From NCBI GenBank assembly GCA_016192455.1, contig JACPUC010000015.1, positions 62,001 to 99,922 on the forward strand: a DNA stretch of 37,922 bases, given 5' to 3'. Origin of the DNA: Candidatus Tectimicrobiota bacterium (GTDB lineage Bacteria > JACPUC01). The position numbers and the translations under genes were made by a program. The notes under the pieces were generated by a model that saw only the letters and a list, made by a program, of their open reading frames with translations, searched no databases and was not told where the DNA came from. This document shows, piece after piece, positions 5,469 to 33,213 of this stretch (its first letter is position 1; the number at the start of each line of letters is the position of its first letter).

Positions 5469-5474
5469 GACGAG

Positions 5475-5536: not shown

Positions 5537-5564
5537 TTGACAGAGTGGGGGAGTTATGTACCAT
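5537..5564 (+). promoter_or_regulatory. Candidate sigma70 promoter, divergent from the R-M promoter
   Basis: TTGACA (5537-5542), 16 nt, TACCAT (5559-5564). Confidence 0.45.
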
Positions 5565-5792: not shown

Positions 5793-5809
5793 CTCGATCA
5801 TTGATCGAG
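5793..5809. promoter_or_regulatory. Perfect palindrome, candidate operator
   Basis: CTCGATCA-T-TGATCGAG in an AT-richer stretch upstream of the solute-binding protein gene. Confidence 0.4.
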
Positions 5810-6174: not shown

Positions 6175-7356
6175 ATGCGTTCCAACCCCTTTGTCAGGGC
6201 ATCATGCCTGCTTCTCATCCTTGCGCTGCTGCTGGGCGCTTCTGCCTTTTCCGCCGCGGCGAAACTGGCCGGGAGCGAAGTCCGCATCGGGGTGATCATC
6301 CCTACCTCGGGCTACATCGTATTTTTCGGCAACCAGCAACTCCTGGCCTTGCGCATTGCGGAAGAGGAGATCAACGCCGCTGGGGGAATCGGTGGCTTGC
6401 CGATGAAGCTGATTGTTTACGATACCGCCTCGAAAGGCGAGACGGCGATTGCCGTGACGAAGAAGCTCATTGATACAGATAAAGTACTCGCCATCATTGG
6501 GCCGCTGTTGAGCAGCAATGCCGAAGTCACCTTCCCCGTGGCGAATCGGGCGAAGATCTCCATCATCTCCGCCGCCTCGGCCGCGCCGGGCATCTCCGCT
6601 CGCAACCGCCCCTGGGGCTTCCGAAATACCTCCACCAGCGACAAGGTGAGTGGACCGGCAATCAAGAAATGGGTCGAGATGCACGGCATCAAGTCCGTCG
6701 GTATTGTCACCGACGTCAAATCGGTCGTGAGCAAAATCTACGGCAAGCAAGTTGCTCCAACCTTGCTGGCGCAACACGGGGTTAAAGTGATTGAGAGCAT
6801 CGATATCATGACAACCGACATGGATTTCAGCGCCCAGGTCACGAAACTCAAAGCGGCAAAACCTGACGGCATTGTTCTCGCCGGCGAGTTCTTCCTGGCT
6901 GCCAATATCGCGCGTGAAGTGCGCCGCCAAGAGATGAAACAACCCTTCCTAGGCGATGTCACCATCTCAGGGACGCAGTACGTGGAACTCGGCGGCAAGG
7001 CTACCGAAGGCACCATCGCCGCCTCCGACTGGTGGCCGGCGAAGCCGGATGCCCGCGTCCAAGCCTTTGTGGAGAAATTCAAGGCGCGGGACCCCAAGAA
7101 GCAAGATCCCCACACTGTGGCCGCAAGCATGTACGACACGATTTACATTACCAAGCGCTTCATTGAAACCGGGGGGGTGACCAACAAACCTGAGGACCTG
7201 GCTGGCGACCGCGAGCGCATTAGAGATGGATGGGCGAACTTGAAGGATTACGCGGGAATCATGGGGCAGACCACCATCAACAGCGACGGCGATGGGGTGA
7301 AGGAACTCTATATCCTCATGGTGAAAGATGGGAAATATGTTCGCCTGGCCGACTGA
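6175..7356 (+). CDS. ABC transporter substrate-binding protein, branched-chain amino acid (LivJ/LivK) type
   Basis: ATG at 6175 after GAGGAGG; Sec signal ending AFSAAA; EVRIGVIIPTSG, EEINAAGGIGG, VLAIIGPLLS and DFSAQVTKLKAAKPDGI motifs. Confidence 0.92.
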   Translation: MRSNPFVRASCLLLILALLLGASAFSAAAKLAGSEVRIGVIIPTSGYIVFFGNQQLLALRIAEEEINAAGGIGGLPMKLIVYDTASKGETAIAVTKKLIDTDKVLAIIGPLLSSNAEVTFPVANRAKISIISAASAAPGISARNRPWGFRNTSTSDKVSGPAIKKWVEMHGIKSVGIVTDVKSVVSKIYGKQVAPTLLAQHGVKVIESIDIMTTDMDFSAQVTKLKAAKPDGIVLAGEFFLAANIAREVRRQEMKQPFLGDVTISGTQYVELGGKATEGTIAASDWWPAKPDARVQAFVEKFKARDPKKQDPHTVAASMYDTIYITKRFIETGGVTNKPEDLAGDRERIRDGWANLKDYAGIMGQTTINSDGDGVKELYILMVKDGKYVRLAD

Positions 7357-7446
7357 TCTTTCGCTCGCAGGCTGTTGGGCGCAGAGCGCAGAAAGCGGGG
7401 GACTGCCCAGGTCGTTCGTGTGCCGGCCGAGGAGAGAAGAGACGAC

Positions 7447-9081
7447 ATGTTGAAGCAGCGGTTAACACAACTCAGCACGGATCAGGACCTCACTCAGTAC
7501 CCCTATGCCACCTTGCCGCCGACGCCCGAGGCCTCCGAGCCCCGCTACGTTCCGGCTCCGATGGAGAGCATGCGCATTCGCATGCGCGACGGAGTCCACC
7601 TCGAGGCCGACATCTTCCGACCCGCCGCGGCGGGGCAGCGCTTCCCGGCCCTGGTGGCGTGTTCCCCGTATGGCAAGTTCATGCAGCATACGCCCATTTG
7701 CCACCAGGGCAACGAAGCGGGTGATATCGACTTCTGGGTGCGGCGCGGCTATGCGCAGGTCATCTTCGATGTGCGCGGCGCCGGCGGCTCCGAAGGGTTG
7801 CTCTGTTTCTTGGGGGATGCCGAGCAGCAGGACGGCGCCGATCTCATCGAATGGGTGGCGCAGCAGCCGTGGTGCAACGGCAAGGTGGGCATGATCGGCA
7901 TGTCCTACTACGCCATGATCCAGTACCTGGTGGCCGCTCAGCAACCTCCCAGCCTGAAGGCGATCTTCCCTTACGATGGCGCCAACGATCTCTACCGCGA
8001 ATGGATGAACACCGGCGGCCTCAACGTGCTCGGCTTCGACGCCGCCATGACCTACTTCATCACCCGCGCCAATCTGACCCCCGGCATCCCGCAGGAGCGG
8101 GCCGAAGCCCTGCTGGAGTTCGGGCGCCTGACGATGAATCGCGTCCATCGCGAAGATGGGCCGTACTTCTGGGAGCGTTCGGCCTGCTGCAAGATGGACC
8201 GCATCAAGGTGCCCGTCTACTGCGGCTCGGGCTGGTACAGCATCGGGCTGCACCTGCGCGGCGCCTTCACCGCCTGGGAGAACCTCCAGGTCCCCAAGCG
8301 GCTCCTCATTACGGGCAAGAAAGTGCCGGCGCGCCCCTGGAGGAGCTTCCATGTCGAAGCCCTGCGCTGGTATGACCATTACCTGAAGGGAATGGACACA
8401 GGTGTCCACGCGGGGCCGCCCGTGAACCTCTACACGCTGGGCGCCGAGGAGTGGCGCTCGCACCAGGACTGGCCGCTGCCCACCACCCGCTGGACCGAGT
8501 GGCACCTCTCCAGCGACCGCCATGGCCGGGGCGTTCTGCTGGACAGCCAGGCCACCCGCACCAGCACCCACAGCTTCACCACGGACCCCGAAAGCCCGGA
8601 GTGCCTCGAAGGCTTGCCGGCCTTGGTCTACCGCACCGAGCCGTTCGAGCGAGACACCGAAATCACGGGGCCGGTCGCCCTCTACCTGGTGGGCTCGGCC
8701 GATCAGCCGGAGACGTTTTGGATCGCCAAGGTGTTGGACGAAGATGCGGCAGGCCAGACGCGGGTGCTGACCAAAGGATGGCTGCGCGGAACGCACCGCG
8801 CTCTGGATCGGGAGCGCTCCAGACCGTGGCGTCCGTTCCATCCACACCGGCAGGGGGAGCCGCTCGTGCCGGGAGAGCCGACGGAGTTTCCCATCGAGAT
8901 TTGGCCCACCTCCAACGTCTTCAAGGCCGGCCACCGCTTCCGCCTGGAGGTCTCGGCGTGTGACAGCCCTGCCTATGACCTCCCCTTCGCCCACTACCCG
9001 TACAGTCGCGTCGTCACCAACACCGTCCATGAGGGGGGCGCGCGGGGCTCAAAACTCCTCGTTCCCCTCATTCCATCTTGA
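7447..9081 (+). CDS. CocE/NonD family hydrolase (peptidase S15-like), copy 1
   Basis: MRDGVHLEADIFRP, SPYGK, DVRGAGGSEG, QPWCNGKVGMIGMSYYA (nucleophile elbow), EITGPV, LTKGWLRGTHR and IWPTSNVFKAGHR motifs. Confidence 0.93.
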   Translation: MLKQRLTQLSTDQDLTQYPYATLPPTPEASEPRYVPAPMESMRIRMRDGVHLEADIFRPAAAGQRFPALVACSPYGKFMQHTPICHQGNEAGDIDFWVRRGYAQVIFDVRGAGGSEGLLCFLGDAEQQDGADLIEWVAQQPWCNGKVGMIGMSYYAMIQYLVAAQQPPSLKAIFPYDGANDLYREWMNTGGLNVLGFDAAMTYFITRANLTPGIPQERAEALLEFGRLTMNRVHREDGPYFWERSACCKMDRIKVPVYCGSGWYSIGLHLRGAFTAWENLQVPKRLLITGKKVPARPWRSFHVEALRWYDHYLKGMDTGVHAGPPVNLYTLGAEEWRSHQDWPLPTTRWTEWHLSSDRHGRGVLLDSQATRTSTHSFTTDPESPECLEGLPALVYRTEPFERDTEITGPVALYLVGSADQPETFWIAKVLDEDAAGQTRVLTKGWLRGTHRALDRERSRPWRPFHPHRQGEPLVPGEPTEFPIEIWPTSNVFKAGHRFRLEVSACDSPAYDLPFAHYPYSRVVTNTVHEGGARGSKLLVPLIPS

Positions 9082-9691: not shown

Positions 9692-10084
9692 TCAGACACG
9701 GGAGTGGTACCAGGTGTCGAGGTCGATGACCTCGGCCAGGCGGGTGCTGGTGTGGCGCAAGCGCTCGATCAGGGAACCGAGGATGTACTGCATCGCCAGC
9801 GGCATGGAGGCGAGGAGGCGGCGAAATTCGCTCTCCGGCACGACGGCCACGCGCACGCGCTCAAGCGCCGCCACCGCCGCCGAGCGCGCGCCGCGGTCAA
9901 TGATCCCCATCTCCCCGAAGACCTCACCCTTGCTGAGCACGCGCAGACTCACCTTGCGCCGATTGACGGTCTTGAACACCTCGACACGGCCTTCCAGAAT
10001 CACGTAGGCGCTCGTGCCCATGGCGTCCTCGGCGACGATCACCTCGCCAGCCCCGTAGCTCTCCTCCGGTAGATGCCCCTGCAT
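9692..10084 (-). CDS. Stand-alone cyclic-nucleotide-binding domain protein
   Basis: ATG at 10084 after GGAGGGA, 130 aa. GEVIVAE..G.SAYVILEGRVEV...GEVFGEMGII...RSA phosphate-binding cassette. No HTH domain. Confidence 0.9.
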   Translation of the reverse strand: MQGHLPEESYGAGEVIVAEDAMGTSAYVILEGRVEVFKTVNRRKVSLRVLSKGEVFGEMGIIDRGARSAAVAALERVRVAVVPESEFRRLLASMPLAMQYILGSLIERLRHTSTRLAEVIDLDTWYHSRV

Positions 10085-16757: not shown

Positions 16758-19700
16758 ATGACCGAGGAGCAGAAGTCGAGTCAAGCATCGAGTGGGAGCG
16801 GACTGACACGGCGGAGTTTCTTCCAGGCTTCGGGGGGACTGGTGGCGGGGCTGGCGGCGCTCACGACCGGCGGGGCGCTGCGGTCGAAGCCGGCCTTGGC
16901 GGCCCGCACGTTGATCCCGGTCAGTCAGCAGCAGAATCCCCTGGAGAGCTATCCGAACCGCGTTTGGGAACATGTCTACCTCGATCAGTACTCTTATGAC
17001 AGCACCTTTGCCTGGGTCTGCTCGCCGAACGACACGCACGCCTGCCGCTTGCGGTCGTTCGTGAAGAACGGCGTCGTGCTGCGCAGCGAGCAGAACTACG
17101 ATTCGCATCGTCTCACCGACCTCTATGGCAACCAGGCGACGCGGGCCTGGCATCCACGCGGCTGCGGCAAGGGTCAAACGATGCACCGCCGCGTCTACGG
17201 TCCCTTCCGCCTCAAGTACCCCACGGTGCGGAGGGGGTGGAAAGCCTGGGCCGATGCGGGGTTTCCCTCCCTGTCCGACAATCCTGAGCTGCGCGACACC
17301 TTCAAGTTCACTTCCCGCGGCACCGACACCTTTGTGCGCCTCTCCTGGGAGGAGGCCTTCGACTACATCGCCCGCGGCGCGGTCGCCGTGGCCCAGACGT
17401 ATAGCGGCGTGGCGGGGCGCCGACGCCTCCTGGCGGATGGCTACCAGGCGGAGATGGTCGAGGAGACGCAGGGGGCCGGCACGCGCACGATGAAGCTGCG
17501 CGGCGGCATGGGGCTGCTGGGCGTCATCGGCAAGTACGGCATGTACCGTTTCGCCAACATGCTGGCCCTGCTCGATACGCACGTCCGCGGGGTTGGGCCG
17601 GACAAGGCGCTCGGCGGGCGCAACTGGTCGAACTACACCTGGCACGGCGATCAGGCGCCGGGCCAGCCGTTCGTGCACGGCCTGCAGGCGTCGGACTGCG
17701 ACTTCAACGACATGCGCAACACCAAGCTGCACGTCCAGGTGGGCAAGAACCTCGTCGAGAACAAGATGCCCGACAGCCACTGGTTCATCGAGACCATGGA
17801 GCGCGGCGCCAAGATCGTCGTCATCTCCCCGGAATACAGCCCACCCAGCACCAAGGCCGACTACTGGATCTCGGTGCGGCCCGGTCTCTCGGATACGGCG
17901 ATCTTCCTCGGCATCACCAAGTACCTCATGGACAAGAAGCTCTACGATGAGCCGTTCGTGAAGCAGTTCACCGACTTCCCGCTGCTGGTGCGCGCCGACA
18001 CGCTGAAGCGCCTGAAGGCCGCGGAGGTCTTCCCGAGCTACAAACCCGGCCTCGGCAAGGACGGCCCCAGCTACACCATCCAAAACCTGGCGGATGACCA
18101 GTACGCCAAGCTGGGCGACTTCGTCGTGGTGGAGAAGAAAGACGGCAAGCTGAAAGCGATCACGCGCGATGACATCGGCCAGCGCATGCTGCAGAAGGGG
18201 ATCGATCCGCTCCTTTCCTGGAAGGGGAAGGTGAAGCTGGTGAACGGCAGCGAGGTCGAGGTGATGACCCTGTGGGATATGTACGTCGTGCATCTGCGCG
18301 ACTACGACCTCGACACGGTGGCGGAAATCTGCGGCGCCCCGAAGGCCCTCATCGAGCGCCTGGCCAACGACATCGCCACCATCAAGCCGGTGGCCATCCA
18401 CATCGGCGAGGGGATCAACCACTGGTTCCACGCCACGTTGCACAACCGCGCCACCTACCTGCCGCTCATGCTGACGGGGAACATCGGCAAGCCCGGCGCC
18501 GGCTGCCATACCTGGGCGGGGAACTACAAGGCGGCCCTCTTCCAAAGCGCCCCCTGGTCGGGTCCCGGCTTCAAGGGATGGGTCGCCGAGGATGTCTTTG
18601 ACCCGCTCCTCGATGCCGGCGCGTCCGGCAAGGACATCAAGGTGAAGGGCCGCGCCAAGGACGAGGAGCCGGCCTACTGGGACCACGGCGATCAGGCCTT
18701 GATCGTGGAGACGCCGAAGTACGGCCGCAAGAACTTCACCGGCGCCTCGCACATGCCCACGCCGACGAAGTTCCTTTGGTTCAACAACGTCAATCTCTTC
18801 AACAATGCCAAGTGGGCCTACGGCGTTTTGAAGAACGTCAATCCCAAGATCGACCTGATCGTCAACCAGGATATCGAGATCACCGCCACCGGCGAGTACT
18901 CCGACTTCAACCTGCCGGCCAACTCCTGGATGGAGTTCCAGGTGCCCGAGATCACCGCCTCCTGCTCCAACCCCTTCCTACAGATCTGGGGCGGCAAGGG
19001 GATCAAACCCCTCTACGACAGCAAGGATGACGTCCTCATCATCGCCGGCGTCGCCAAGCGGCTCGGGGAAGTGCTCGGAGACGCGCGCTTCGCCGACTAC
19101 TGGAAGTTTGTCCTGGAGGGGCGTCCCGAAGTCTACATGCAACGACTGCTCGAGAGTTCCACCACCACCGCCGGCTACACCGTTCAGGACATCAATGCGG
19201 GCAAGTACGGCGAGCCCGGCGCCGCCCTCATGCTCTTCCGCACCTACCCGCGGGTGCCTTTCTGGGAACAGCTCCAGGAGAACATCCCGTTCTACACCGA
19301 CACGGGACGGCTGCACGCCTACTGCGACATCCCCGAGGCGATCGCCTATGGCGAGAACTTTATCGTGCATCGGGAAGGGCCGGAGGCCACGCCGTACCTG
19401 CCGAACGTCATCGTCTCCACCAACCCGTACATCCGCCCGGACAACTACGGCTTCACGGCGGACATGGTGCAGCGGGCCGTCCTCGATGCCGACATCCGCA
19501 CCGTGGCCAACAACAAACTGTCATGGGCCGACACGAAGAAGAGCAAGAACCCGCTCTGGGAGCAGGGCTTTAACTTCTACATCATCACCCCGAAGACCCG
19601 GCACCGCGTGCACTCCCAGTGGAGCATGGACGATCTGCATATGGTGTGGGATTCGAACTTCGGCGATGCCTACCGCAGAGACAAGCGCACCGTCGGCACG

Positions 19701-20291
19701 GGCGAGCACCAGATGCACATCAACCCGCAGGCCGCCAAGGACCTCGGCCTCGAGGACGGCGACTACGTCTACGTGGATGCCAATCCCGCCGACCGTCCGT
19801 ACCTCGGCCACTCTCCCCAAGACCCCTTCTACAAAGTGGCGCGGCTGATGCTGCGGGTGCGGTACAACCCCGCTTACCCATACCACGTCCTCATGATGAA
19901 GCACTCGCCGTTCATGGCCACCGAGCGCAGCGTCAAGGCCCACGAGACGCGGCCCGACGGGCGCGCCCTCTCCGCCGACACCGGCTACCAGGCGAACCTG
20001 CGCTACGGATCGCACCAGAGCATCACGCGCGACTGGGCGATGCCGATGCACCAGACGGACAGCCTCTTCCACAAGGCCAAGGTGGCGATGAGCTTCATGT
20101 TCGGCGGCGAGGCCGATAACCACGCCATCAACACCGTTCCCAAGGAGACCCTGGTGCGCGTCGTGAAGGCCGAGCCGGGGGGGCTGAACGGCAAGGGGGC
20201 GTGGCTGCCGGCGACCACGGGCAATACTCCCAGCCACGAAAACGCCTTCATGAAGCGCTACCTCGAGGGTGACCTGATCCGCAGCGTCTAG
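16758..20291 (+). CDS. nxrA: Periplasmic nitrite oxidoreductase / nitrate reductase alpha subunit (type II DMSO reductase family, NXR-like)
   Basis: Tat signal GLTRRSFFQ; FS0 motif CSPNDTHAC...PRGC; RGGMGLLGVIGKYGMYRF and GGRNWSNYTWHGDQAPG (Mo-ligand Asp region); TPKTRHRVHSQW; NHAINTVPKET. Reaction direction is not determinable from sequence. Confidence 0.88.
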   Translation: MTEEQKSSQASSGSGLTRRSFFQASGGLVAGLAALTTGGALRSKPALAARTLIPVSQQQNPLESYPNRVWEHVYLDQYSYDSTFAWVCSPNDTHACRLRSFVKNGVVLRSEQNYDSHRLTDLYGNQATRAWHPRGCGKGQTMHRRVYGPFRLKYPTVRRGWKAWADAGFPSLSDNPELRDTFKFTSRGTDTFVRLSWEEAFDYIARGAVAVAQTYSGVAGRRRLLADGYQAEMVEETQGAGTRTMKLRGGMGLLGVIGKYGMYRFANMLALLDTHVRGVGPDKALGGRNWSNYTWHGDQAPGQPFVHGLQASDCDFNDMRNTKLHVQVGKNLVENKMPDSHWFIETMERGAKIVVISPEYSPPSTKADYWISVRPGLSDTAIFLGITKYLMDKKLYDEPFVKQFTDFPLLVRADTLKRLKAAEVFPSYKPGLGKDGPSYTIQNLADDQYAKLGDFVVVEKKDGKLKAITRDDIGQRMLQKGIDPLLSWKGKVKLVNGSEVEVMTLWDMYVVHLRDYDLDTVAEICGAPKALIERLANDIATIKPVAIHIGEGINHWFHATLHNRATYLPLMLTGNIGKPGAGCHTWAGNYKAALFQSAPWSGPGFKGWVAEDVFDPLLDAGASGKDIKVKGRAKDEEPAYWDHGDQALIVETPKYGRKNFTGASHMPTPTKFLWFNNVNLFNNAKWAYGVLKNVNPKIDLIVNQDIEITATGEYSDFNLPANSWMEFQVPEITASCSNPFLQIWGGKGIKPLYDSKDDVLIIAGVAKRLGEVLGDARFADYWKFVLEGRPEVYMQRLLESSTTTAGYTVQDINAGKYGEPGAALMLFRTYPRVPFWEQLQENIPFYTDTGRLHAYCDIPEAIAYGENFIVHREGPEATPYLPNVIVSTNPYIRPDNYGFTADMVQRAVLDADIRTVANNKLSWADTKKSKNPLWEQGFNFYIITPKTRHRVHSQWSMDDLHMVWDSNFGDAYRRDKRTVGTGEHQMHINPQAAKDLGLEDGDYVYVDANPADRPYLGHSPQDPFYKVARLMLRVRYNPAYPYHVLMMKHSPFMATERSVKAHETRPDGRALSADTGYQANLRYGSHQSITRDWAMPMHQTDSLFHKAKVAMSFMFGGEADNHAINTVPKETLVRVVKAEPGGLNGKGAWLPATTGNTPSHENAFMKRYLEGDLIRSV

Positions 20292-20359: not shown

Positions 20360-20638
20360 ATGGCAGAGAAGGCGTTCGATCCCGAGGACCCCATGGAGCT
20401 CGTCGGCGTCGAGCTGCCGGGCTGCGACCCGGCACAGATGCTCGACGACATCGTGCAGGAGTACCTCCTCATGGGCTGGGGAGCGGCGCAGATTCTCGAA
20501 CTCTTCCGCTCCCCCCACTTCACCGCCACGCACCGGATTCTGCAGCTCATGGGCGAGCCTTACGTGACCGAACGGGTGGACCGACTTGCCGAAGCATGGC
20601 AGCAGGGTTGGCTTACCGAAGGAGAGGCAGATGGCTAA
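20360..20638 (+). CDS. Small hypothetical protein within the nxr operon
   Basis: Strong RBS GGAGGAGG; 92 aa (DPEDPMELVGV...EYLLMGW...LFRSP.F); 8-nt overlap with the beta-subunit start. Confidence 0.8.
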   Translation: MAEKAFDPEDPMELVGVELPGCDPAQMLDDIVQEYLLMGWGAAQILELFRSPHFTATHRILQLMGEPYVTERVDRLAEAWQQGWLTEGEADG

Positions 20639-21905
20639 GGTCTACAACTGGCAGATCGGCAGAGAGATGTCCTACCCCTACGAGCAGGCTGCTCCCAAGC
20701 GCCAGTGGGCGTTCGTCTTCAACATCAACCGCTGCATCGCCTGTCAAACCTGCACCTTCGCCTGCAAGGCCACCTGGACCTTCTCGAAAGGCCAGGAGTA
20801 CATGTGGTGGAACAACGTCGAGACGAAGCCGTACGGCGGCTATCCGCAGTTCTGGGACATCAAGCTCCTGACCCTGCTGGATGAGAGCCACCGCAAGGCC
20901 AACCGGCAGATGGTCTGGAACAGCGCCAAGCGGCAGGGGGAGCAGCGTCCCTACGGCACCTACGAGGGGATGACGATCTTCGAGGCCGCCGAGCAGAACG
21001 GCTTGCAGCAGGAAGTGGCCCTGGGCTACGAGCCGAGCGATGCGGAGTGGAGCGCCCCGAACATCTACGAGGACACCGCCACCGGCCTCACCAGCGCCAA
21101 GGGCGCCACAACCATCGCCTCGGGCAGCCTGCCCGAGCATAAGGCATGGTTCTTCTACCTGCAGCGCGTCTGCAACCACTGCTCGTACCCGGCCTGTCTC
21201 GCCGCATGCCCCCGCAAGGCGATCTACAAACGGCCCGAGGACGGCATCGTCCTCATCGATCAGGAGCGCTGCCGGGGCTACCGCAAGTGCGTCATGGCCT
21301 GCCCCTACAAGAAGTCGCTCTACCGCCCGACCACCCGCACCAGCGAGAAGTGCGTCGCCTGCTACCCGCGCATCGAAGGCAAGGACCCCCTCTACCCCGG
21401 CCAGCCGCTGGAGACGCGCTGCATGTCGGTCTGCCCCGGCCGCATCCGCATGCAGGGGCTGGTGAAGAAGAACGCCGACGGGAGCTGGGCCGAGGATCGG
21501 CAGAACCCGCTCTACTTCCTCGTCAAGGTCGCCAAGGTGGCCCTGCCGCTCTACCCGCAGTTCGGCCTGGAGCCGAACGGCTACTACATTCCGCCGCGCT
21601 GGGCGCCCCGCCCCTACCTGCGGCAGATGTTCGGCCCCGGCGTGGAAGAGGCCATCGCGGCGTACACCGCCCCGTCGCGCGAGCTGCTGGCGGTGCTGCA
21701 GCTCTTCCGCACCACCCAGCAGATCATCTTCCGCTACGAGATCATCGAGGGACCGAAGGTCTTCGAAACGACCATCCAAGGGAAGAAGTGGCAAATGTAT
21801 AACGACACGGTGGTGGGCTATGGCCAGGATGGCCGCGAGGTGACCCGCGTGGCGGTGGAGGAGGGGCTGCAGGTGCGTCCCAACAAACACGCCAACTCCA
21901 TCTAG
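20631..21905 (+). CDS. nxrB: NXR/Nar beta (Fe-S) subunit
   Basis: MAKVYNWQIGREMSYPY start; CIACQTCTFAC, CNHCSYPACLAACP, CRGYRKCVMACPY, CVACYP...CMSVCPG cluster motifs; MWWNNVETKPYGGYP; LPLYPQFG. Confidence 0.92.
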   Translation: MAKVYNWQIGREMSYPYEQAAPKRQWAFVFNINRCIACQTCTFACKATWTFSKGQEYMWWNNVETKPYGGYPQFWDIKLLTLLDESHRKANRQMVWNSAKRQGEQRPYGTYEGMTIFEAAEQNGLQQEVALGYEPSDAEWSAPNIYEDTATGLTSAKGATTIASGSLPEHKAWFFYLQRVCNHCSYPACLAACPRKAIYKRPEDGIVLIDQERCRGYRKCVMACPYKKSLYRPTTRTSEKCVACYPRIEGKDPLYPGQPLETRCMSVCPGRIRMQGLVKKNADGSWAEDRQNPLYFLVKVAKVALPLYPQFGLEPNGYYIPPRWAPRPYLRQMFGPGVEEAIAAYTAPSRELLAVLQLFRTTQQIIFRYEIIEGPKVFETTIQGKKWQMYNDTVVGYGQDGREVTRVAVEEGLQVRPNKHANSI

Positions 21906-23912: not shown

Positions 23913-25643
23913 TCAGAGGTACGGTTTGCCGCCGGAGATGAAGGTGCCCATGACGTTCCCCCTGGTGATCGGCAGCAGCAGGTGCGAGGGATGCTCCGCG
24001 TTGTGGTGCACGGTGATGCGTGACGCCGAGGCGCGGTGCAGGTGACCCGAGGCCAGCGCTTCGAGCGGGTGCTTGGGTGGGTCGTCAGTGCAACTGATCT
24101 TCAGCACCAGCCTTGATCCAGGCTTGCAGAGAGTGCAGGTGGGAACGAGCGGGATGGTGAACTCCGTCACCTCTCCGGGGGTGAGCGGCTCGGGCTGCGT
24201 GTGCGGGAAAAACGGCGCCCAGGGTTTGGAGCGCTGCGGGTCGAGGCGTCGATGCGAGCCGCGCAGCCAGCCGCGCGTCAAGATGCGCTCCTGCCCCGCC
24301 GCGTCCACGGCGCGCAGGCTGATGAACCAAAGCGCCTCGGGAGCCGTGCTGGAGGCGAACAGCTTGAGCACGATGGGGCCGATGACCTCCGTCTGCTCCA
24401 CGAAGAGGGGGGTGGAAAACTCCAGGCTGCCGCGTCCCCATGGCGAGTCTTCAAACGAGGTCGTCCCCTCGTTCGGCCAGTGCTCGCGCTCGAAGAGGAC
24501 GCCCCCTTCGTGCAGGTGGAAGGGAGTCCATTTCGTTTCCGGCAGAGGCCACTCGTTCGCTTCCTTCCAGGTTCCCTCGCCGGGGATAAAGAGCCTGATC
24601 GGCGGCTCCTGCAGAATCCCCGTCTCGATCCCTTTCAGCCAGAAATCGAACCAGCGCAGCGACTCGTACTGGAGCTGGTAGAGAGGGCGGTCCAAGTACG
24701 CCGGCGGGCCGATCACCAGCTTCTTGGGGACGCTCAAGTTCTCCCAGCTCCGGAAGGCTCCGGGCAGGTGCAGGCCGTAGATGCCCCAACAGGCGCCCAG
24801 GTACGCCGGCACGTTGATGGTCGGGTAGTTTACCCGGCGCTCCTCCCAGTACGGGCCATCGCAGGGGTTGAGCAGCAGGTCCACCAGGAGGGGATTCATC
24901 CCCTGCTCGGGGTTGCGCAGGATCGCCGCCAGTTCAGGCACGCGGGTGATGTCCTCATCCCGCAAGCACGCCGCGATGGCCTGTCCAAACGCCTCCTCGC
25001 CGAGGCGTTGCCGCGTCTCGCTCGCCACCCTGGCCTTGTAGAGCGAGCCATACGCCCACATGCGCCAGAAACCGTGACCGAGGATGCCGCCGTGATAGAC
25101 GGAGTCGCGGTAAAGGTCCGTGGCTCCCCAGGGGGCGAAGATGCACTTCAGGTGGGGTGGATTGAGCGAGGCGATGAAGAACTGAATCCAGGCGAAATAC
25201 GACACCCCGAACATGCCGACCTGGCCGTTGCACCAGGGTTGCCGTGCCATCCACTCGATGAGCTCGCAGCCATCCTCGATCTCGCGGCGGGCAAGAAAGG
25301 GGTAGATGCCGCCCGAGTTGCCGGTTCCCCGGATATTGGCGATGAGGTAGGCGTAACCGCGGCGCACGTAGAACGCCGGGTCGCCCGCTTCGATATAGGC
25401 GGTCCCTTCTTCCTGATTGGCATGCCGAAAGATGTTGATGGAAAGGGCCGCAGGCTTTATCGGTGCGGTTTGCGAGGCTTGATTATACGGATGATAGCCC
25501 AGGATGGCGGGAAAAGGTCCGGCTGCGTCGGGCCGGAAAATATCGGCATCGAGTTCGATACCGTCACTCATGGGAATCTTTACGGAGCGTTCCACCACCA
25601 CGCCGTACGCGCGTTCCGACGTTGTCCATGCAGTGCTAAACAT
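23913..25643 (-). CDS. CocE/NonD family hydrolase, copy 2
   Basis: MSDGIELDADIFRP, NIRGTGNSGG, QPWCNGQVGMFGVSYFA, EVIGPI and LTRGWLRGSHR motifs; evident paralog of 7447-9081. Confidence 0.92.
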   Translation of the reverse strand: MFSTAWTTSERAYGVVVERSVKIPMSDGIELDADIFRPDAAGPFPAILGYHPYNQASQTAPIKPAALSINIFRHANQEEGTAYIEAGDPAFYVRRGYAYLIANIRGTGNSGGIYPFLARREIEDGCELIEWMARQPWCNGQVGMFGVSYFAWIQFFIASLNPPHLKCIFAPWGATDLYRDSVYHGGILGHGFWRMWAYGSLYKARVASETRQRLGEEAFGQAIAACLRDEDITRVPELAAILRNPEQGMNPLLVDLLLNPCDGPYWEERRVNYPTINVPAYLGACWGIYGLHLPGAFRSWENLSVPKKLVIGPPAYLDRPLYQLQYESLRWFDFWLKGIETGILQEPPIRLFIPGEGTWKEANEWPLPETKWTPFHLHEGGVLFEREHWPNEGTTSFEDSPWGRGSLEFSTPLFVEQTEVIGPIVLKLFASSTAPEALWFISLRAVDAAGQERILTRGWLRGSHRRLDPQRSKPWAPFFPHTQPEPLTPGEVTEFTIPLVPTCTLCKPGSRLVLKISCTDDPPKHPLEALASGHLHRASASRITVHHNAEHPSHLLLPITRGNVMGTFISGGKPYL

Positions 25644-27244: not shown

Positions 27245-27475
27245 CTAGGAGCTGCCGCCGAACGATCCGCCCATGCCGCCGCCCATCATACCCATGCCCA
27301 TCTGTGCATATGCCTCAGGAACAACCTTGAAGGAGCGGATGCTGGGGCGGTGGTAGGCCAGCAGGAATGCCGCCGCGCCGATGCCGAGGTGCTTGAAGAG
27401 ATCGCGGCGTTCCACTCCCTCTTGGGGGGTATCGCCCTGCGCGTCACGCGCTTCACCCTTGGGGAACTGATCCAT
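27245..27475 (-). CDS. 76-aa precursor-like peptide B with twin-arginine leader
   Basis: ATG at 27475 after AGGAGG. MDQFPKGEARDAQGDTPQEGVERRDLFKHLGIGAAAFLLAYHRPSIRSFKVVPEAYA|QMGMGMMGGGMGGSFGGSS. Paralog at 28976-29206. Confidence 0.82.
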   Translation of the reverse strand: MDQFPKGEARDAQGDTPQEGVERRDLFKHLGIGAAAFLLAYHRPSIRSFKVVPEAYAQMGMGMMGGGMGGSFGGSS

Positions 27476-27654
27476 CGTGAGAACCTCCTGTCCCCGCAAC
27501 CACTGGGCCGCCATCCCTAAAGATATTCGAGATATTCCAGCGCCGGCCTGCCTCCTGTGCACCTGTCACGTGGCGAGGTGGCCCCCCTTTGGTCACTGCA
27601 AGGAAGCAAGCTGCGTTTACCCCGGCAAGGGTGCGCGCGCCTCCTGGGATCGCT

Positions 27655-28578
27655 TCAGGGGACCGGCGCGCCACAGCTTGCAAGTGTCGCTCTGATGGAG
27701 CTCACCCCTTCTTCCAGCGACGCCATCGTGAGCTCATAGCCAGGCAGCGCGTGAGCCACATCGATGAGGGCGCAGAGGCGCTCCGTGGTCCGTTCCTCGA
27801 GGTTCATCCCCTCCTGAGTCAGCCGCTCGAGGACCTCGGCCGGATCAAGGGCGCGCAGGCGCGTTCGCTCCTCTGGCGCATACCTGGGGAAGAAAAGCAG
27901 CGACGGCTTCGCCCGCGCGCCAGGGCTCAGTTGGCGGTAGGAAGCGGGATCGACTACGTAGCGCCGCTTGCCGTCGAACTTGGTATGCGAGAAACATACC
28001 GCGGCCGCGGGCCAGAAAGCGCGCAGCGAGGCGAGAACGTCCTCCCGCAGCAGGAAGCTGCGCTGGAAGGGGATGAGGGAGAGGCGCGCCACGTCGAGAA
28101 AGATCAACTCTTCCGAGACCAGCACAAACCCCAGGGATGCCAAGCCGGCCAGGAGCGTTGATTTTCCCATCCTCGGCGGGCCGATGAGGAGGAGCGTTTG
28201 CCGCCCGTTCGTCATCGCTCCCCCATGGAGATGCACGCAATCGCCGCGCCTCGTGGCGGCGTGCGCCCCGAAGGATCGGTCCACCTTGTAGAGGGCTTCA
28301 TCCAGATTCGGCTTCACGTGCAATTGCGAGCCGGCATCGATGACCCGCCACTCGGCGCCATTCGAGGTGTGGTGCACGGAAAAAGTAGGGAGCTGGGCCC
28401 GGGCGCTCTCCGCCCGGTCGCCGTTGCGATCACCATTCTGGTCGCCATGATCGCTGACGCGCGCGTAGTAGAGCTGGGACAACCGCGCCAAGAACTCCGC
28501 GCTGTTGGTGCGCAACTCAACCTTGCACCCGGCGAGCCAGAAGATCGCGCAACTCTGCCCCTCTTGCCGTTTCATCAT
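27655..28578 (-). CDS. HPr kinase-like P-loop protein, copy 2
   Basis: HLHGGAM...LLLIGPPRMGKSTL (Walker A)...LVSEELIFLD; paralog of 30468-31325. Confidence 0.8.
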   Translation of the reverse strand: MMKRQEGQSCAIFWLAGCKVELRTNSAEFLARLSQLYYARVSDHGDQNGDRNGDRAESARAQLPTFSVHHTSNGAEWRVIDAGSQLHVKPNLDEALYKVDRSFGAHAATRRGDCVHLHGGAMTNGRQTLLLIGPPRMGKSTLLAGLASLGFVLVSEELIFLDVARLSLIPFQRSFLLREDVLASLRAFWPAAAVCFSHTKFDGKRRYVVDPASYRQLSPGARAKPSLLFFPRYAPEERTRLRALDPAEVLERLTQEGMNLEERTTERLCALIDVAHALPGYELTMASLEEGVSSIRATLASCGAPVP

Positions 28579-28975
28579 CGAGGAGAACGCTTCTCAAGCA
28601 ACAACCCCAATCGCCTTTCGAAGACTCCTACAGTAGTGCGAGATAAAGCAATCGTCCTCAGGAATAAGTAGAACAACTCCGCTTATCTATAGACCCGCCT
28701 TTGGTTGTCAAGGAAATCGATGCGCCCCATGAAGAGCGCCGCGCGTGCGGCCAGGTGGCGGGTGGTTGAACTCCCTGGAGCGACACCTACCCTCCGCGGA
28801 AGCAGACGGCTCGCCAGCCGGACACACCACCTCCGCCGCGCCGCGGCACACTCCCCGAACCGCCGGCGCTACGTCACCCCTCCCCTCGCTTGGCAGCTTC
28901 TGTCTGGCCAGAGGGCCGAAGCAGGCATGCCGAGGGGGCCTCGACGACGAGCCGTGGAGGCGCCGAGATGCTCCG

Positions 28976-29206
28976 TCAGAACCCCATGTGCATGTTCTGC
29001 TGGCCGTGTCCGAACGAGCTCTTGCCGGGGTGATCCTGCGCCATGGCCCCCGGCGCGACCCTGAAAGTACGGATCGACGGTGGATGATAGACGAGGAGGA
29101 ACGCCCCCGCGCCGGCGCCGATTGCTTTGAGGAGGTCGCGGCGCCCCAGTCCGGAGGCAGGTTTCTCCTCTCCCTGACTTTCTGTCACACCCTCGTACGG
29201 TTCCAT
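28976..29206 (-). CDS. 76-aa precursor-like peptide A with twin-arginine leader
   Basis: GAGGGA RBS. MEPYEGVTESQGEEKPASGLGRRDLLKAIGAGAGAFLLVYHPPSIRTFRVAPGAMA|QDHPGKSSFGHGQQNMHMGF. Starts 33 nt after the methyltransferase stop. Confidence 0.85.
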   Translation of the reverse strand: MEPYEGVTESQGEEKPASGLGRRDLLKAIGAGAGAFLLVYHPPSIRTFRVAPGAMAQDHPGKSSFGHGQQNMHMGF

Positions 29207-29239: not shown

Positions 29240-30475
29240 TTAGCGGGATGCCGCGTCGCTGGTCGTTGTGGGAGTGCCGCTTCGACTCGCGGTAGGGTGG
29301 TCCCCCCCCCCGCTCCTGCCGGCAACGTCGACACGGTGGCGCAGGGTCTCCGCGAGGAGCACCCGCGCGTAGGCCTCGTCACGAACGATGTCGCCGAAAC
29401 TCGCCCGCAACTCTTCGATGATGGCCTGCGCCGCGAGACCGCGGCGACAGCCGTCAAGAACCGCCGCGTCGATCCGACCGCGCTCGTTCAGCAGCGGCCG
29501 CCAGTCATCCCCCTGCCGTCCCAGCGACTCCTCCGTGCAGAGGATTGATGCGAACGAGTCATGGTTGCGGACCGCTACCACCGTTGGAGACGCCGCCCCG
29601 TCCGAGGATCGAAGCTGCCGCACCCTCCACTTCCAGATTATGTCGATCCAGGGAAAAGTTGCAAGCTCGACATGCAAACGATCTCCCGCCGCCGCGGCGA
29701 GGGGTGGGGAGATCGGAAAGAAGGCTTGCTGCCATGCGGTCGCCGTGAACTGCGGGTGGTTCGAGAGGACAAGGCCCTCAAGGAGGCGCAAATCGAACCA
29801 CCCCAGCAGACCATGCACCTCGGCGGCGCGCGGCACCTCGAAGCTCAGGCTGGCGGAGAAGTGCCCCGTGGTCGCCTCGCGCAGGCGCAGGCGATGAACC
29901 TCCCCCGGCGTCGCCACCAGCTCGGCGGCGGAAAATGCCCGGTAGATCGGCTTGCCGTAGATGGTGGCGAGCAGCGGCTGCGGCTCGATTCCCAGCTTGC
30001 TCACCAGCCGCACGGGGCGCTCAAGCTCGGCGTAGAACTCCGGGGTGCTGACCGGCGCCATGAAGAGCACCACCTCCTCGGGGAGGAACTTCCCCGTCGG
30101 CTTCAGAAGCCGCTCCCGGCAGCCGAGGATGACCTCGTCAACGGAGGCGTGCAGAAAAAAGGGGTCGAAGTGCTCCGTCACCAGGAGATCGACCGGCTCC
30201 GGCAGGCGCACCGAGCGCGCATCCTCCTGCACGAAGGTGATGCGCTCCGCCCAGCCATTGGCCCGCGCCAGCTCGCGGGCCTTGCCGATCACGTCGTGCG
30301 GCTCGATGGCATAGACGCGCTCGGCGCCCGCAGCGCAGGCGAAGAAGGCGAACGTCCCCAGCCCCGTGCCGATCTCGGCGACGGTCTGGCCGCGCAAGTC
30401 GAGACGCTGGAAGGCCTCGCGGAAAGCGCCCAGCCGGCGCTCGTCCTGCCACATGCGCAAATAGTACTCAAGCAT
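29240..30475 (-). CDS. PRMT-fold SAM-dependent methyltransferase with PqqD/RRE-like C-terminal domain
   Basis: ATG at 30475 overlaps the kinase stop. YLRMWQDERRLGAFREA, VAEIGTGLG, AGAERVYAIE, VDLLVTE, RLLKPTG, HGLLGWFD, TAWQQ. Tail LNERGRIDAAVLDG...AIIEELRASF. Confidence 0.82.
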   Translation of the reverse strand: MLEYYLRMWQDERRLGAFREAFQRLDLRGQTVAEIGTGLGTFAFFACAAGAERVYAIEPHDVIGKARELARANGWAERITFVQEDARSVRLPEPVDLLVTEHFDPFFLHASVDEVILGCRERLLKPTGKFLPEEVVLFMAPVSTPEFYAELERPVRLVSKLGIEPQPLLATIYGKPIYRAFSAAELVATPGEVHRLRLREATTGHFSASLSFEVPRAAEVHGLLGWFDLRLLEGLVLSNHPQFTATAWQQAFFPISPPLAAAAGDRLHVELATFPWIDIIWKWRVRQLRSSDGAASPTVVAVRNHDSFASILCTEESLGRQGDDWRPLLNERGRIDAAVLDGCRRGLAAQAIIEELRASFGDIVRDEAYARVLLAETLRHRVDVAGRSGGGDHPTASRSGTPTTTSDAASR

Positions 30476-31325
30476 GGAGCACGCTCTCCACGCATGCCAC
30501 GGCGTCTCGCAGGGATGAGGCCGTGATCTCGTACGCGGGCGCCGACTCCGCCAGGCGCGCCAGCGCCGAGACCCCCGCGAAGCCGTGTCCCGCAAGGTTG
30601 AGCGTCTGGCTCAGGAGACGTCCAAAAACCTCCTCGAGCGGCAGCAGCTCAATCCGTCTGGCGCTCTCCGCACGGTAGGCGGGGAAGATGAGGAGGTAGG
30701 GCGCGGCGACTTCCCGTGTGGGCGCCTGCTGGAACGACCCAGGAGCCGGAAGGTAGCGGCGCGTGCCGTCATCCTTCGTGTAGGCGTAACTGAGCGTCGC
30801 CGCCGGCCACACCGCGCGCACCTCCTTGAGCGCGGCCTCCCTGATGAAGATGCCGCGTCGGAAGGGGATCACCGCGAGCCGTTCGGGGTGCAGGAAGAGC
30901 AGCTCGTCGGCCACATACTCGAAGCCGCGCCCCAGCAAGCCGGCGAGCAGCGTCGTCTTGCCGGCGCGGGGGCCTCCCAGGACGAGGATGGTGCGTCGCC
31001 CCCCGCGGCTCACCCCCCCTCCGTGGAGCTGCAACAGGTCTGGACGCGCCTCCATGGCGTACGTGCCGAAGGCAAGGTCCACCTCGTAGAGGGCTTCTTC
31101 CAGCGTCTCGGTCTGGAGACGCTGCAACTTCTGGTCCACGATGCGCCAGCGCTCACCCTTGGCGCACGCCGCTTCCGTAAGGCGCATCACCTCAATCATT
31201 GGACAATCGCATGGCTCAGGTGGTTCTCGCTCGTACTCCCCATAGAGCTGAGAGAGCCGCGCGACAAAAGATGGGCTGTTCGTCCTGAGCGCAATTTGCC
31301 GATCCGCAACCCGGAAGATCGTCAT
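30468..31325 (-). CDS. HPr kinase-like P-loop protein, copy 1
   Basis: Start at 31325 inferred from the paralog (IFRVADRQIALRTNS vs IFWLAGCKVELRTNS). QLHGGGV...LVLGGPRAGKTTL...YVADELLFL. Confidence 0.82.
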   Translation of the reverse strand: MTIFRVADRQIALRTNSPSFVARLSQLYGEYEREPPEPCDCPMIEVMRLTEAACAKGERWRIVDQKLQRLQTETLEEALYEVDLAFGTYAMEARPDLLQLHGGGVSRGGRRTILVLGGPRAGKTTLLAGLLGRGFEYVADELLFLHPERLAVIPFRRGIFIREAALKEVRAVWPAATLSYAYTKDDGTRRYLPAPGSFQQAPTREVAAPYLLIFPAYRAESARRIELLPLEEVFGRLLSQTLNLAGHGFAGVSALARLAESAPAYEITASSLRDAVACVESVLHA

Positions 31326-31620
31326 AGATGCAATCCCGTCACGCCTGACCATGCTCCCGGGTCCATGCGCCGCGACCCCCTGCCGGCCAAGTTCATGGCG
31401 GACTGGTAAGGCCACGTGGGGTCCTCACGTTCACTACATCGTACTCTCCTGTCACAACTCAATATATGGCCAATCATTCTGAGTTGGGTATCCCCCGGCG
31501 GCAAGTGATGTGACAATCGGCCCCGCGCCCCGGCGGATCACGCCTGGTCGCCTTGGCTGGCCGCCGGCACTGGCTTACAGCGGCAGCGAAGCGACGCGAG
31601 ATGGGGAACAGCAGGCAGGA

Positions 31621-32787
31621 CTACGGACGTTTCCCTGGCTGGCCGGGAGCGGGCTTCGTCGCCTTCTTTCCCCCCGGTAGGAGCTCGTACAGCCGCGCCA
31701 GCAGGTACCCCCAGGGCTGGCGGCGCAGCTTCTCGAGGTTCTCCGGCGCGGGGTGGAGGAGGAGCCGCAGGGGCCATCCCCAGCGTTGCCAGCGACGCGA
31801 GGTGGAGAGGCAGACCTCCAGCCAGGGGCCAAGGATCTCGCTGCTCCGGCCGCGCAGGGACGGCAGCATGAGCCTCGCCGCCAGCCACTCCATGAGGCGC
31901 TCCTCGATGGCGCTGAGGTGCGGAAACCTGCTGAGATCCTGAAGGACGCCGTCTGGGATGGGCACCCCAAGGAGGCGCTGGGCGAGGCGAAGGTAGAGGC
32001 GACAGTACGCGCCCACCCGGTAGGCGTTGGCGCGCTGGACGAAGGCTGGCCAGTCAAGGCGGCAGCGCTCGAGGATGGCCGCGGCGTCACAGAGACTGTA
32101 GAGGTGTCCCACGCACGCATCCATGTAGGTTGCATGCAGGGCGGCGTGCAGGAGGAGGTCTTCCGCGGCGAAGCGGCGGCCGGGCTGCGCCGCGATGAGG
32201 CAGGGCGAGGCGCGCTCCCACACCTCCCCGCTCCTGATGGCATGTCCGGGCGGGGGGCTGACGAAGGCCAGGTGCACCTCCACCGGGCTGCGCCGCTGCG
32301 GGTGCACAAAGCCGGGAAGCTGGTGCGGGGTGGTGTGAGGGCGCCGGCGCAGGGGGATGTCGGTCTTCATGACGTAGCCGAGGCTCTTCAGCAGCTCGGT
32401 TGTTCTTGCCGCATCCGGGGGGGCGATGAGGAGGTCGATGTCCTCCATGCAGCGCGTGCCGATGTCCTCATAGACGCTTTCCAGGAGGGCGGCTCCCTTC
32501 AAGACGACGACCGGGATGCGGTGCGCGGCGAGCGTCGCGAGGAGCCCCCCCAGCTCATGGAGGAGCGCGACATTGGCGCCGAGGGTGCTATAGTAGAGCG
32601 CCTCGATCTCCCGCAGGTGCTGCGGAAGAATGCGCACCGAGGGATGCGCGGCGAGGCGGCGATAGAGGAGCGGCGCAACGCGCAACGACGCCGCCAGCTT
32701 GACGACCTCCGCCGTGATCGAAAGCCGGAGGCCGGGCGGCAGCTCCCGTCGGAGAGCCTGGAGGAGGCGCCGCCTTGCCTGCTTCAT
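31621..32787 (-). CDS. Nucleotidyltransferase family protein (NTP_transf_5-like)
   Basis: ATG at 32787 after AGGAGGAG. VVVLKGAAL...Y.....R.MEDIDLLI, VEVH, EDLLLHAALHA, LCDAA motifs. Confidence 0.88.
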   Translation of the reverse strand: MKQARRRLLQALRRELPPGLRLSITAEVVKLAASLRVAPLLYRRLAAHPSVRILPQHLREIEALYYSTLGANVALLHELGGLLATLAAHRIPVVVLKGAALLESVYEDIGTRCMEDIDLLIAPPDAARTTELLKSLGYVMKTDIPLRRRPHTTPHQLPGFVHPQRRSPVEVHLAFVSPPPGHAIRSGEVWERASPCLIAAQPGRRFAAEDLLLHAALHATYMDACVGHLYSLCDAAAILERCRLDWPAFVQRANAYRVGAYCRLYLRLAQRLLGVPIPDGVLQDLSRFPHLSAIEERLMEWLAARLMLPSLRGRSSEILGPWLEVCLSTSRRWQRWGWPLRLLLHPAPENLEKLRRQPWGYLLARLYELLPGGKKATKPAPGQPGKRP

Positions 32788-33213
32788 ACCGCTCCTCCTG
32801 GCTGGCAGGCATGGCGCGGGGGCGGCCACGACGCTCCCCGCGCGACCGCCCGCTCTTTCCTCACCATGGTGAGCAGTATAGCGCAGGTTAAAGGAAAGGC
32901 GCAGGCTCGGCTCGCCGGCGCCGGTATTTTTCACTGACTCCTGGGCTCCTCCGGACCTGCTGGATTCCTGTTTCTCCTGCCAGCCCGGTGATTGGTGGTT
33001 GTCCTCCCCGCGGCGAGGCAGCAGAATGGCGCGGCGTCAAGCGCGAGCGGCAGAGCAAGCCAGGCGGGTTGAGCCAGTCGGATCGACCCATCCGCGGCGG
33101 ACTCCTGGCGAGCCTGGCGTGGACCGCCATGGCGAGCGGCAGGCCGCGGCGGCCTCTCAGTCACCATCCCGGCGGGCGACACGCCTGGGCGGCGCCCCCA
33201 AGTCGTGCGCTTC

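Follow-up and report, generated by a model that had tools for sequence, protein, structure and literature searches.

Can a single leader serve a small bacterial peptide both as the docking site of its modifying enzymes and as its export signal? This question is raised by two open reading frames (ORFs), A and B, in a stretch of 37,922 nucleotides from Candidatus Tectimicrobiota bacterium (contig JACPUC010000015.1, positions 62,001 to 99,922), which we call the window. Their N-terminal parts carry a motif of the twin-arginine translocation (Tat) type, followed by a motif of the type bound by RREs, the recognition elements of peptides that are made on the ribosome and then modified post-translationally (RiPPs). 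A and B are real paralogous genes in an operon of modifying enzymes, the motifs of their leaders are conserved family-wide, and the methyltransferase of the operon has a probable PqqD-like domain. Judged by sequence, A and B are members of a precursor family, as yet without a name, that is scattered over many bacteria. The full reading, that A and B are genuine precursors of a leader-guided modification pathway related to that of the linear polyphosphorylated peptides (LPP) of Bacillota and to the tailoring of phosphorylated lasso peptides, and that they are exported by Tat, is one for which we find belief and doubt evenly balanced.

Two paralogous genes in an operon of modifying enzymes

Gene A (28976..29206, minus strand) starts at an ATG and consists of a leader (residues 1-56) and a core (residues 57-76). 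Its twin-arginine motif is RRDLLK (residues 22-27; 29126..29143), its RRE-type motif is YHPPSIRTF (residues 40-48; 29063..29089), and its putative core, the 20-residue QDHPGKSSFGHGQQNMHMGF (28979..29038), follows AMA↓Q. Gene B (27245..27475, minus strand) has the same plan, with a leader of residues 1-57 and a core of residues 58-76, the motifs RRDLFK (residues 23-28; 27392..27409) and YHRPSIRSF (residues 41-49; 27329..27355), and the putative 19-residue core QMGMGMMGGGMGGSFGGSS (27248..27304) after AYA↓Q. A preliminary description of the locus had given both ORFs a length of 76 residues and quoted their leaders; the lengths are right, and the quoted strings are present letter for letter. It had also treated A and B as precursor-like paralogues, and BLASTP bears this out: the leaders are identical at 28/49 positions (57%, E 5e-18), the match stops at A↓Q, and the tails are unrelated except for a common S-F-G. 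The core of A has an Asp at position 2 as its only acidic residue, the core of B has no acidic residue, and no core Ser occupies a conserved position between the two.

The frame of B is open further 5' to a GTG at 27562, which would give 105 residues if used, and the ATG at 27475 is the sole start with an AGGAGG, located 8 nt upstream. In A, GAGGG lies 7-10 nt before the ATG. GC at the three codon positions is 0.68/0.49/0.75 in A and 0.68/0.48/0.77 in B, which is like that of the adjoining genes (GC3 0.79-0.87) and unlike that of intergenic DNA. These Shine-Dalgarno sites and the gene-like codon-position GC indicate that A and B are real genes.

Close relatives are few. A word-index search with A gave one match, and an exhaustive profile search with A, B and P0001 over 1.84 billion representatives gave two, P0001 and B itself. 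P0001 is a 76-residue homologue of A, 91% identical, that a 6,933-base contig of another assembly encodes; P0019, a 90% identical homologue of the methyltransferase, likewise comes from a 6,933-base contig. Of the seven positions at which A and P0001 differ, five lie in residues 1-17 and the core contains none; taken alone, this pattern is weak (chance about 0.12). The window stretch is also present in four DNA runs of one groundwater study, a possible source; among the runs listed as containing it, none is of RNA.

The operon lies on the minus strand in the order nucleotidyltransferase, kinase 2, methyltransferase, A, a 397-bp gap, kinase 1 and B. HprK-related kinase 1 (27655..28578, 307 residues) is located directly upstream of B, contains the Walker A sequence GPPRMGKS and matches TIGR04352 at E 2.1e-21 (76.2 bits). 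HprK-related kinase 2 (30468..31415, 315 residues) matches the same model at E 1.5e-28 (99.7 bits), its stop overlaps the methyltransferase start, and it is 38% identical to kinase 1. The equivalog cut-off of TIGR04352 is 200 bits, whereas the three kinases of the genome score 75-100 bits; therefore, they are relatives of TIGR04352 and not equivalogs. The protein between kinase 2 and A (29240..30475; 411 residues from the ATG at 30475) is an S-adenosylmethionine (SAM) methyltransferase resembling protein arginine methyltransferases (PRMTs), with matches to PF22528, PF17286 and PF13649 and with the homologues P0019-P0027. Its C-terminal extension contains a probable PqqD/RRE-like domain at about residues 305-392 (29300..29563), examined with hhalign, AlphaFold2 (AF2) and VIA-align. 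The PF14907 nucleotidyltransferase (31621..32934, E 1e-46) probably starts at 32787.

A leader family beside HprK-related kinase genes

The composite motif of A and B, [RK]R.[FLI][LIF][KR], 4-14 residues and [YF]..P.[VILM].[ST], was written as a regular expression after the family had been seen. It matches three places in the six-frame translation of the 4.46-Mb genome, namely A, B and an ORF on contig C2, and none in the reversed genome. The genome has three HprK-related kinase genes, and every one of these ORFs is found beside one of them. The C2 locus (L023, G000:C2:4000-20000) encodes at 5274-8817 on the minus strand a nucleotidyltransferase, an HprK-related kinase, a discrete PqqD and, just upstream, the 98-residue ORF, which has RRRFLK, a hydrophobic stretch, YVAPLVQS, VEA↓Q and an Arg/Gly-rich C-terminus. 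Genes for an AAA ATPase, an HD-GYP protein and polysaccharide export flank this cassette. There is no methyltransferase near it, and the sole copy found in the genome is that of the window.

We also examined a comparison set of 401 genomes, all related to this groundwater metagenome-assembled genome at the same-domain level only. The kinase model matched 28 of them. Thirty-five kinase places were listed: three belong to the genome itself, 20 (from 16 genomes, high in the list but not in strict rank order) were fetched, and the 12 others were left out. The first regular expression gave 26 lines, of which nine, short frames beside a kinase, were kept and 17 were dropped as long frames or as frames without any other family feature. 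Short ORFs with the bipartite leader are present in nine of the 20 loci (L054, L055, L056, L060, L063, L064, L065, L068 and L073). In these nine loci the ORFs usually adjoin PqqD, kinase and nucleotidyltransferase genes, and often a PRMT-like methyltransferase gene. Five further loci (L058, L061, L066, L067 and L071) have plain hydrophilic or basic YxxPx[VL] leaders; L067 is a true lasso cluster, also with a PRMT-like methyltransferase. The remaining six (L057, L059, L062, L069, L070 and L072) have no candidate peptide. A profile search of the genome contigs with the kinase alignment gave two weak loci among the matches listed, and a database profile search gave nine more peptides (including P0006, P0007, P0010 and P0012-P0016), all unnamed or called 'hypothetical'.

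The alignment of the family comprises 22 rows, including A, B and P0001. Its leader reads [RK]RxF[LI]KK, a short hydrophobic stretch and [YF]xxPx[VILM]x[ST][FY]. All 22 rows have the second Arg and the Pro, and nearly all have Lys four residues past the twin position. Of the first basic residues, 16 are Arg and six are Lys; the aromatic residue is Tyr in 16 members and Phe in six. At +7 from the aromatic residue (Thr47 in A, Ser48 in B) all 22 have Ser or Thr, followed at +8 by Phe or Tyr in 16/22. Within the presumed leader, this is a strictly hydroxylated position. In 12 of the 22 an Ala is found at +15 from the aromatic residue; A, B and P0001 have it at +16. Four places beyond the training set came to light when the 401 genomes were searched more widely with a profile. 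One of these peptides, in G215:C4, adjoins kinase, methyltransferase and nucleotidyltransferase genes and has a Met/Gly-rich core like that of B; the other three are considered below.

The cores of the family differ in composition. RG/RGG repeats, the classic substrate pattern of protein arginine methyltransferases, occur in cores of methyltransferase-bearing cassettes (L055, 1626-2283, minus strand; L054, 2922-3194, plus strand; P0010; P0015). The methyltransferases of G006 and P0021 keep a THW-like motif, and the window enzyme has TAW at this place. Met/Gly-rich cores recur in unrelated members, as MGMGMM in B, SMGMGGNPMGM in G215:C4 (L060, about 9845-10057, plus strand), EMGMKMM in P0010 and GSNMG repeats in P0016. 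His/Trp/Pro-rich cores are found in G225, G002 and G015. Periplasmic motifs rich in Met and His typically bind copper.

The neighbourhoods of the cassettes also show recurrent features. Radical-SAM genes adjoin the precursor in L054 (1800-2903, plus strand), L063 (8832-9923, minus strand) and L058 (8700-10109, minus strand); the L058 radical-SAM protein carries a PqqD domain, and the L058 core is Cys-rich. Genes for HD-GYP/HD_5, HDOD, PilZN, FHA and AAA_22 proteins lie beside cassettes in L055 (3067-8556, minus strand), L054 (3-1618, plus strand) and L023 (2254-4945, plus strand). The recurrence of HD-GYP/PilZN-type neighbours suggests a tie to cyclic di-GMP (c-di-GMP) signalling and exopolysaccharide loci.

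A leader probably for docking and perhaps for export

The preliminary description proposed that YHxPSIRxF docks modifying enzymes. Its conservation across unrelated genomes and its match to the published RRE motif [Y/W]xxPx[L/V/I..] argue for this proposal, which we consider sound as far as sequence can tell. According to the LPP paper (Popov et al., Nat Commun 2026, PMC13381572), an element of the type [YF]xxPx[VILM] is the motif bound by discrete lasso RREs. The C-terminal domain of the methyltransferase had been named as a possible partner of the motif, and this suggestion has gained support. With hhalign, a profile of the extension matched a profile of 11 PqqD sequences at a probability of 85% (E 5.9e-6, 56 columns), whereas two other methyltransferase regions, used as controls, gave 0.2% and 0.9%. 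The extension comprises about 100 C-terminal residues and is kept in eight of 11 aligned homologues; the G006 homologue is without it, and its operon has a discrete PqqD gene. The AF2 model of the extension (mean pLDDT 70.9) shows the order strand-strand-strand-helix-helix-helix, in which the strands are two of four residues and a two-residue bridge; the helices reach a pLDDT of about 90 and the strands stay below 60. VIA-align placed PqqD 3g2b (Z 6.0, 56 residues aligned, root-mean-square deviation 3.2), 6jx3_B (Z 5.8) and 5v1u_A (Z 5.8) near the model, so that PqqD and two lasso B1 proteins take ranks 3, 5 and 7 of 48,161 chains. A profile search of the PDB with the methyltransferase C-terminus gave no RRE, just forkhead and decarboxylase noise. 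The predicted complex of methyltransferase residues 288-392 with A (score 0.01, mark 0.32) is no evidence either way. We consider that the C-terminal extension is probably an RRE.

The leaders had also been read as a Tat signal with a signal peptidase I site. Tat signals have the consensus (S/T)RRxFLK near the N-terminus, and GRRDLLK in A and ERRDLFK in B fit it. The RR part looks Tat-like by every sequence measure applied; hidden Markov model (HMM) scores at or below the cut-offs and relatives with KR keep export and cleavage a conjecture. A six-frame scan of the genome with TIGR01409 gave 21 hits at E<=10, including A (16.9 bits), the C2 peptide (13.2 bits) and B (13.0 bits); the molybdopterin oxidoreductase of the window, which is likely to be a genuine Tat enzyme, scored 14.1 bits. 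The uncharged stretch is 18 residues long in A and 14 in B, and the peak hydropathy is 2.09 and 1.98; the genome's 14 other hits over the cut-off range over 13-28 residues and 1.31-2.2. In the ESM-Atlas, the clusters nearest to A consist of Tat-substrate N-termini (score 0.96). Both AMA↓Q and AYA↓Q are cleavage-like, and many predicted Tat signals of the genome also end in AxA↓Q. In favour of the A↓Q junction of the preliminary description, it recurs in 8/22 family members and in several of these signals. The genome encodes TatC, two S26 signal peptidases (contig C27) and BamA. TatC is present in all seven other genomes with family peptides; this says little, because it is present in 11 of 14 control genomes too. 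On these sequence features, export of A and B by Tat appears slightly the better supposition. The N-terminal Gln that cleavage would expose might cyclize to pyroglutamate. Titles and abstracts of the searched literature describe no natural RiPP with a Tat leader.

We infer the following pathway; it is conditional as regards leader binding, what each enzyme does, export by Tat, the place of the cut and the role of the peptides. In the cytoplasm, the PqqD-like C-terminal domain of the methyltransferase would take up the leader segment YHxPSIRxF as a strand. This RRE domain would present the short core to the methyltransferase, both HprK-like kinases and the nucleotidyltransferase. One kinase is encoded beside each peptide and might act as its cognate kinase; the likely target of phosphorylation would be a core Ser, perhaps in the common S-F-G motif. 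Methylation and possibly nucleotidyl or glycosyl transfer on the core may be added. The leader would double as a twin-arginine signal, in which RRDL[LF]K is followed by an uncharged stretch rich in Gly and Ala and then by a basic c-region and AxA; the finished peptide would be exported post-translationally by Tat. General signal peptidase I could then cut at A↓Q, and Met/His/Gly-rich peptides of 19-20 residues would be released into the periplasm.

A bolder version is that one leader is read by two machines in turn: the RRE would mask the Tat signal until phosphorylation, methylation and nucleotidyl transfer are complete, TatBC would then receive it, and signal peptidase I would serve afterwards as the leader peptidase. 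We put this forward tentatively, as a possibility that is more doubtful than convincing. In it, the YxxPxIx[ST]F strand may sit within the hydrophobic region and the c-region of the Tat signal. If it is true, the RRE works like the Tat proofreading chaperones of cofactor enzymes, and the family would make up the first naturally occurring class of RiPPs exported by Tat, as periplasmic Met/His/Gly-rich and possibly metal-binding peptides.

Several observations weigh against a Tat-exported, RRE-guided pathway. The TIGR01409 scores lie at or under the curated cut-off (A 16.5 bits as a protein and 16.9 bits in the six-frame scan against 16.7; B 13.0 bits), and A reaches 14.6 against a cut-off of 22.7 with PF10518. 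KR replaces RR in six of the 22 family members, and several relatives have a Lys inside the would-be hydrophobic region, which leaves 12 uncharged residues; together these two features make a family-wide Tat role doubtful. In A and in B, 33 residues separate RR from the putative cut; in five Tat signals of the same genome, counted by eye, there are 23-29. As for the docking domain, unrelated helix-turn-helix proteins reach the same VIA-align Z of about 6, and Foldseek with the methyltransferase C-terminus found nothing in the PDB at E<=0.001 (TbiB1 ranked 31st, at E 3.9). The Pfam PqqD model PF05402 has no match on the methyltransferase and none on contig C12 at E<=1, and BLASTP found no match between the methyltransferase and the C2 PqqD. 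The cores of A and B have no Arg that the methyltransferase could target. Finally, among the three other peptides of the wider search, that of G102 adjoins PqqD only, and around those of G225 and G002:C81 no cassette gene lies within about 8 kb.

What else might the leader be? It could be a docking device only, in which [RK]RxF[LI]KK and the hydrophobic stretch offer the kinase, nucleotidyltransferase or methyltransferase another feature to recognize, such as an amphipathic helix, and the peptide is released by an RRE-guided protease and leaves, if at all, by another route. The KR members, the Lys residues within the 'h-region' and the mostly sub-threshold Tat scores would all be explained, and the fixed distance of 16-17 residues from the aromatic residue to the Ala equals the RRE-guided cleavage geometry of LPP (PMC13381572). 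Candidate proteases would be at hand in an alpha/beta-hydrolase (S9-like) after the L064 cassette and an S15 hydrolase 1.6 kb downstream of B, but the latter and an ABM protein nearby are absent from 21 related loci by tblastn. Furthermore, each position of the motif agrees with the Tat consensus, the 21 genomic Tat-like hits include A, B and the C2 peptide, which lie within the ranges of real Tat signals, and the leader profile cross-matches N-termini of large proteins at profile positions 7-39, 4-37 and 14-54. We therefore judge a leader for docking alone to be somewhat unlikely. A Sec-type signal or an uncleaved membrane anchor, with Sec export like that of bufferin precursors with Sec signals or with tethering to the inner membrane, seems improbable. 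Sec signals share with Tat signals a basic n-region, a hydrophobic stretch and AxA, the KR members would have ordinary Sec n-regions, and RiPP precursors of the DUF2282 family with Sec signals are on record (PMC12710340). Against Sec, the hydrophobic stretch is weak and Gly/Ala-rich, the c-region carries Arg and Lys (SIRTFRV, SIRSFKV), and cytoplasmic modification dependent on ATP, SAM and nucleoside triphosphates (NTPs) would suit post-translational export better. Basic c-region residues are frequent in Tat signals.

Two further alternatives concern the peptides themselves. The invariant Ser/Thr at +7 might be the kinase target, in which case it is the apparent leader that would be modified, with phosphorylation as the gate to export or processing. 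The strict hydroxyl in 22/22 members with Phe or Tyr next to it in 16, and the lack of a core Ser at a conserved position between A and B, are in its favour. However, the phosphosite of LPP is the core Ser3 (PMC13381572), P0005, P0008, P0012 and P0015 have a Ser at core position 3 after the conserved Ala, and a residue in an RRE-bound strand would be a poor kinase substrate. We regard a target at +7 as quite improbable. It is highly improbable that A and B are spurious ORFs, or small proteins exported by Tat, with no functional link to the adjoining enzymes. The finding of just one close A homologue among 1.84 billion representatives points in this direction; the Shine-Dalgarno sites, the coding GC pattern, the conserved leaders and divergent cores of the paralogues, the same leader type beside the same enzymes in unrelated genomes, and the origin of both the homologue of A and that of the methyltransferase from a 6,933-base contig point the other way.

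Returning to leader-guided modification with Tat export, we looked for its other components in the surroundings. Among the 18 window ORFs scanned there is no lasso cyclase, B2 peptidase, S26 or C39 peptidase or ABC exporter, and 20 flanking ORFs scanned at six related loci contain no S26 or C39 peptidase or ABC exporter. Loci with plain YxxP leaders are also without exporter and peptidase (10 ORFs scanned); the absence therefore does not discriminate. The S15 hydrolase and ABM genes downstream of B do not recur at the 21 related loci; they were ruled out as cluster members on this ground, and the cluster boundary was placed at B. Rfam models found nothing in the 397-bp and 884-bp gaps, and the scan for promoters and terminators gave signals not above those of shuffled controls.

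Other genes of the window are as follows. It holds two CocE/NonD-type S15 hydrolases (7375-9081, plus strand; 23913-25643, minus strand), both of them absent from related loci, and its only two Rfam matches are tRNA genes (RF00005; 2457-2528 and 2621-2694, plus strand). The molybdopterin oxidoreductase (16758-20291, plus strand, 1177 residues) has a twin-arginine N-terminus of its own (the 14.1 bits given above) and, together with a 4Fe-4S subunit (20586-21905, plus strand), is unrelated to the peptide cluster.

Cassettes of kinase, PqqD and nucleotidyltransferase genes are found in many bacteria, often in exopolysaccharide or c-di-GMP surroundings, and the precursor family would supply their substrate, none having been known outside Bacillota. 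The family suggests an answer for RiPPs of diderms, in which a general post-translational export signal used as leader would solve both export and leader removal. The PRMT-like methyltransferase with its fused RRE points to Arg-methylated or otherwise N-methylated bacterial peptides. If the reading is true, binding of an RRE to a signal peptide links RiPP maturation with Tat quality control, and a simple sequence rule becomes available for mining such peptides, which are mostly uncalled or labelled hypothetical.

Comparison with LPP, lasso tailoring and other systems

The nearest described system is LPP of Bacillota, composed of LppA/K/B/S/D/N; its description (PMC13381572) calls it restricted to Bacillota. 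There, the leader YxxPxVLxHQxIxFET↓ puts the Tyr at -16, the discrete RRE LppB presents the cut site to a SipW-like signal peptidase I, and an HprK-like kinase polyphosphorylates the core Ser3. The locus studied here shares a linear precursor with a YxxPx[V/I] RRE motif (YHPPSI, YHRPSI) whose Tyr stands about 16 residues before the cut, an HprK-like kinase and a PF14907-type NTP transferase without a lasso cyclase; leader removal by a peptidase of the signal peptidase I type is plausible here too. It differs in that its RRE-like domain is not discrete but fused to a PRMT-like methyltransferase, an enzyme that PMC13381572 does not mention. Furthermore, the window ORFs scanned encode neither a SipW-like peptidase nor an MsbA-like exporter, the locus has two kinases, its leader has the added module of RRxFLK and hydrophobic stretch, and its host is a diderm. 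By eye, the extended consensus YxxPxVLxHQxIxFETxxS is unmatched here beyond Y, P and I/V. Three features keep the locus outside LPP: its RRE-like domain is not discrete, and both the SipW-like peptidase and the exporter are missing from the ORFs scanned.

Phosphorylated lasso peptides, which we take to be represented by the types paeninodin, pseudomycoidin and Bsf, offer the second comparison. Their tailoring, as outlined in PMC13381572, resembles our locus in the [Y/W]xxPx[L/V/I] leader, the PqqD-type RRE, the HprK-like kinase and the nucleotidyltransferase. Unlike them, the window has no Asn-synthase-like cyclase or B2 peptidase among the ORFs scanned, and the cores of A and B lack a ring-forming Asp or Glu at position 7-9. 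The HPr-rel-A system of NCBIfam, the TIGR04352 kinase together with the TIGR04353 PqqD protein, resembles our locus in the cassette of kinase, PqqD and nucleotidyltransferase, and the C2 locus has that layout plus a leader-bearing ORF; the kinases of this genome, however, fall far short of the 200-bit cut-off. We know of no precursor family attached to the HPr-rel-A model.

The role of the RRE in the boldest version of our reading is like that of TorD, DmsD and NapD, which bind Tat signals and hold the substrate until its maturation ends. The folds of these chaperones are unrelated to the RRE, and their substrates are cofactor enzymes and not short peptides. Bufferin-type precursors, DUF2282 proteins with a DUF2063 RRE and Sec signal peptides, are like A and B in that the N-terminus is a general export signal and modification in the cytoplasm precedes export (PMC12710340). 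They differ in that the signal is of the Sec and not the twin-arginine type, the enzymes are others and, in the passage concerned, no RRE motif is described within the signal. In the literature searched, the cassette is described only in the LPP paper, whose supplementary precursor lists lay outside the search and might include related leaders. In summary, the locus is a variant of the LPP and lasso-tailoring kind, new in its methyltransferase-RRE fusion and in its Tat-like module.

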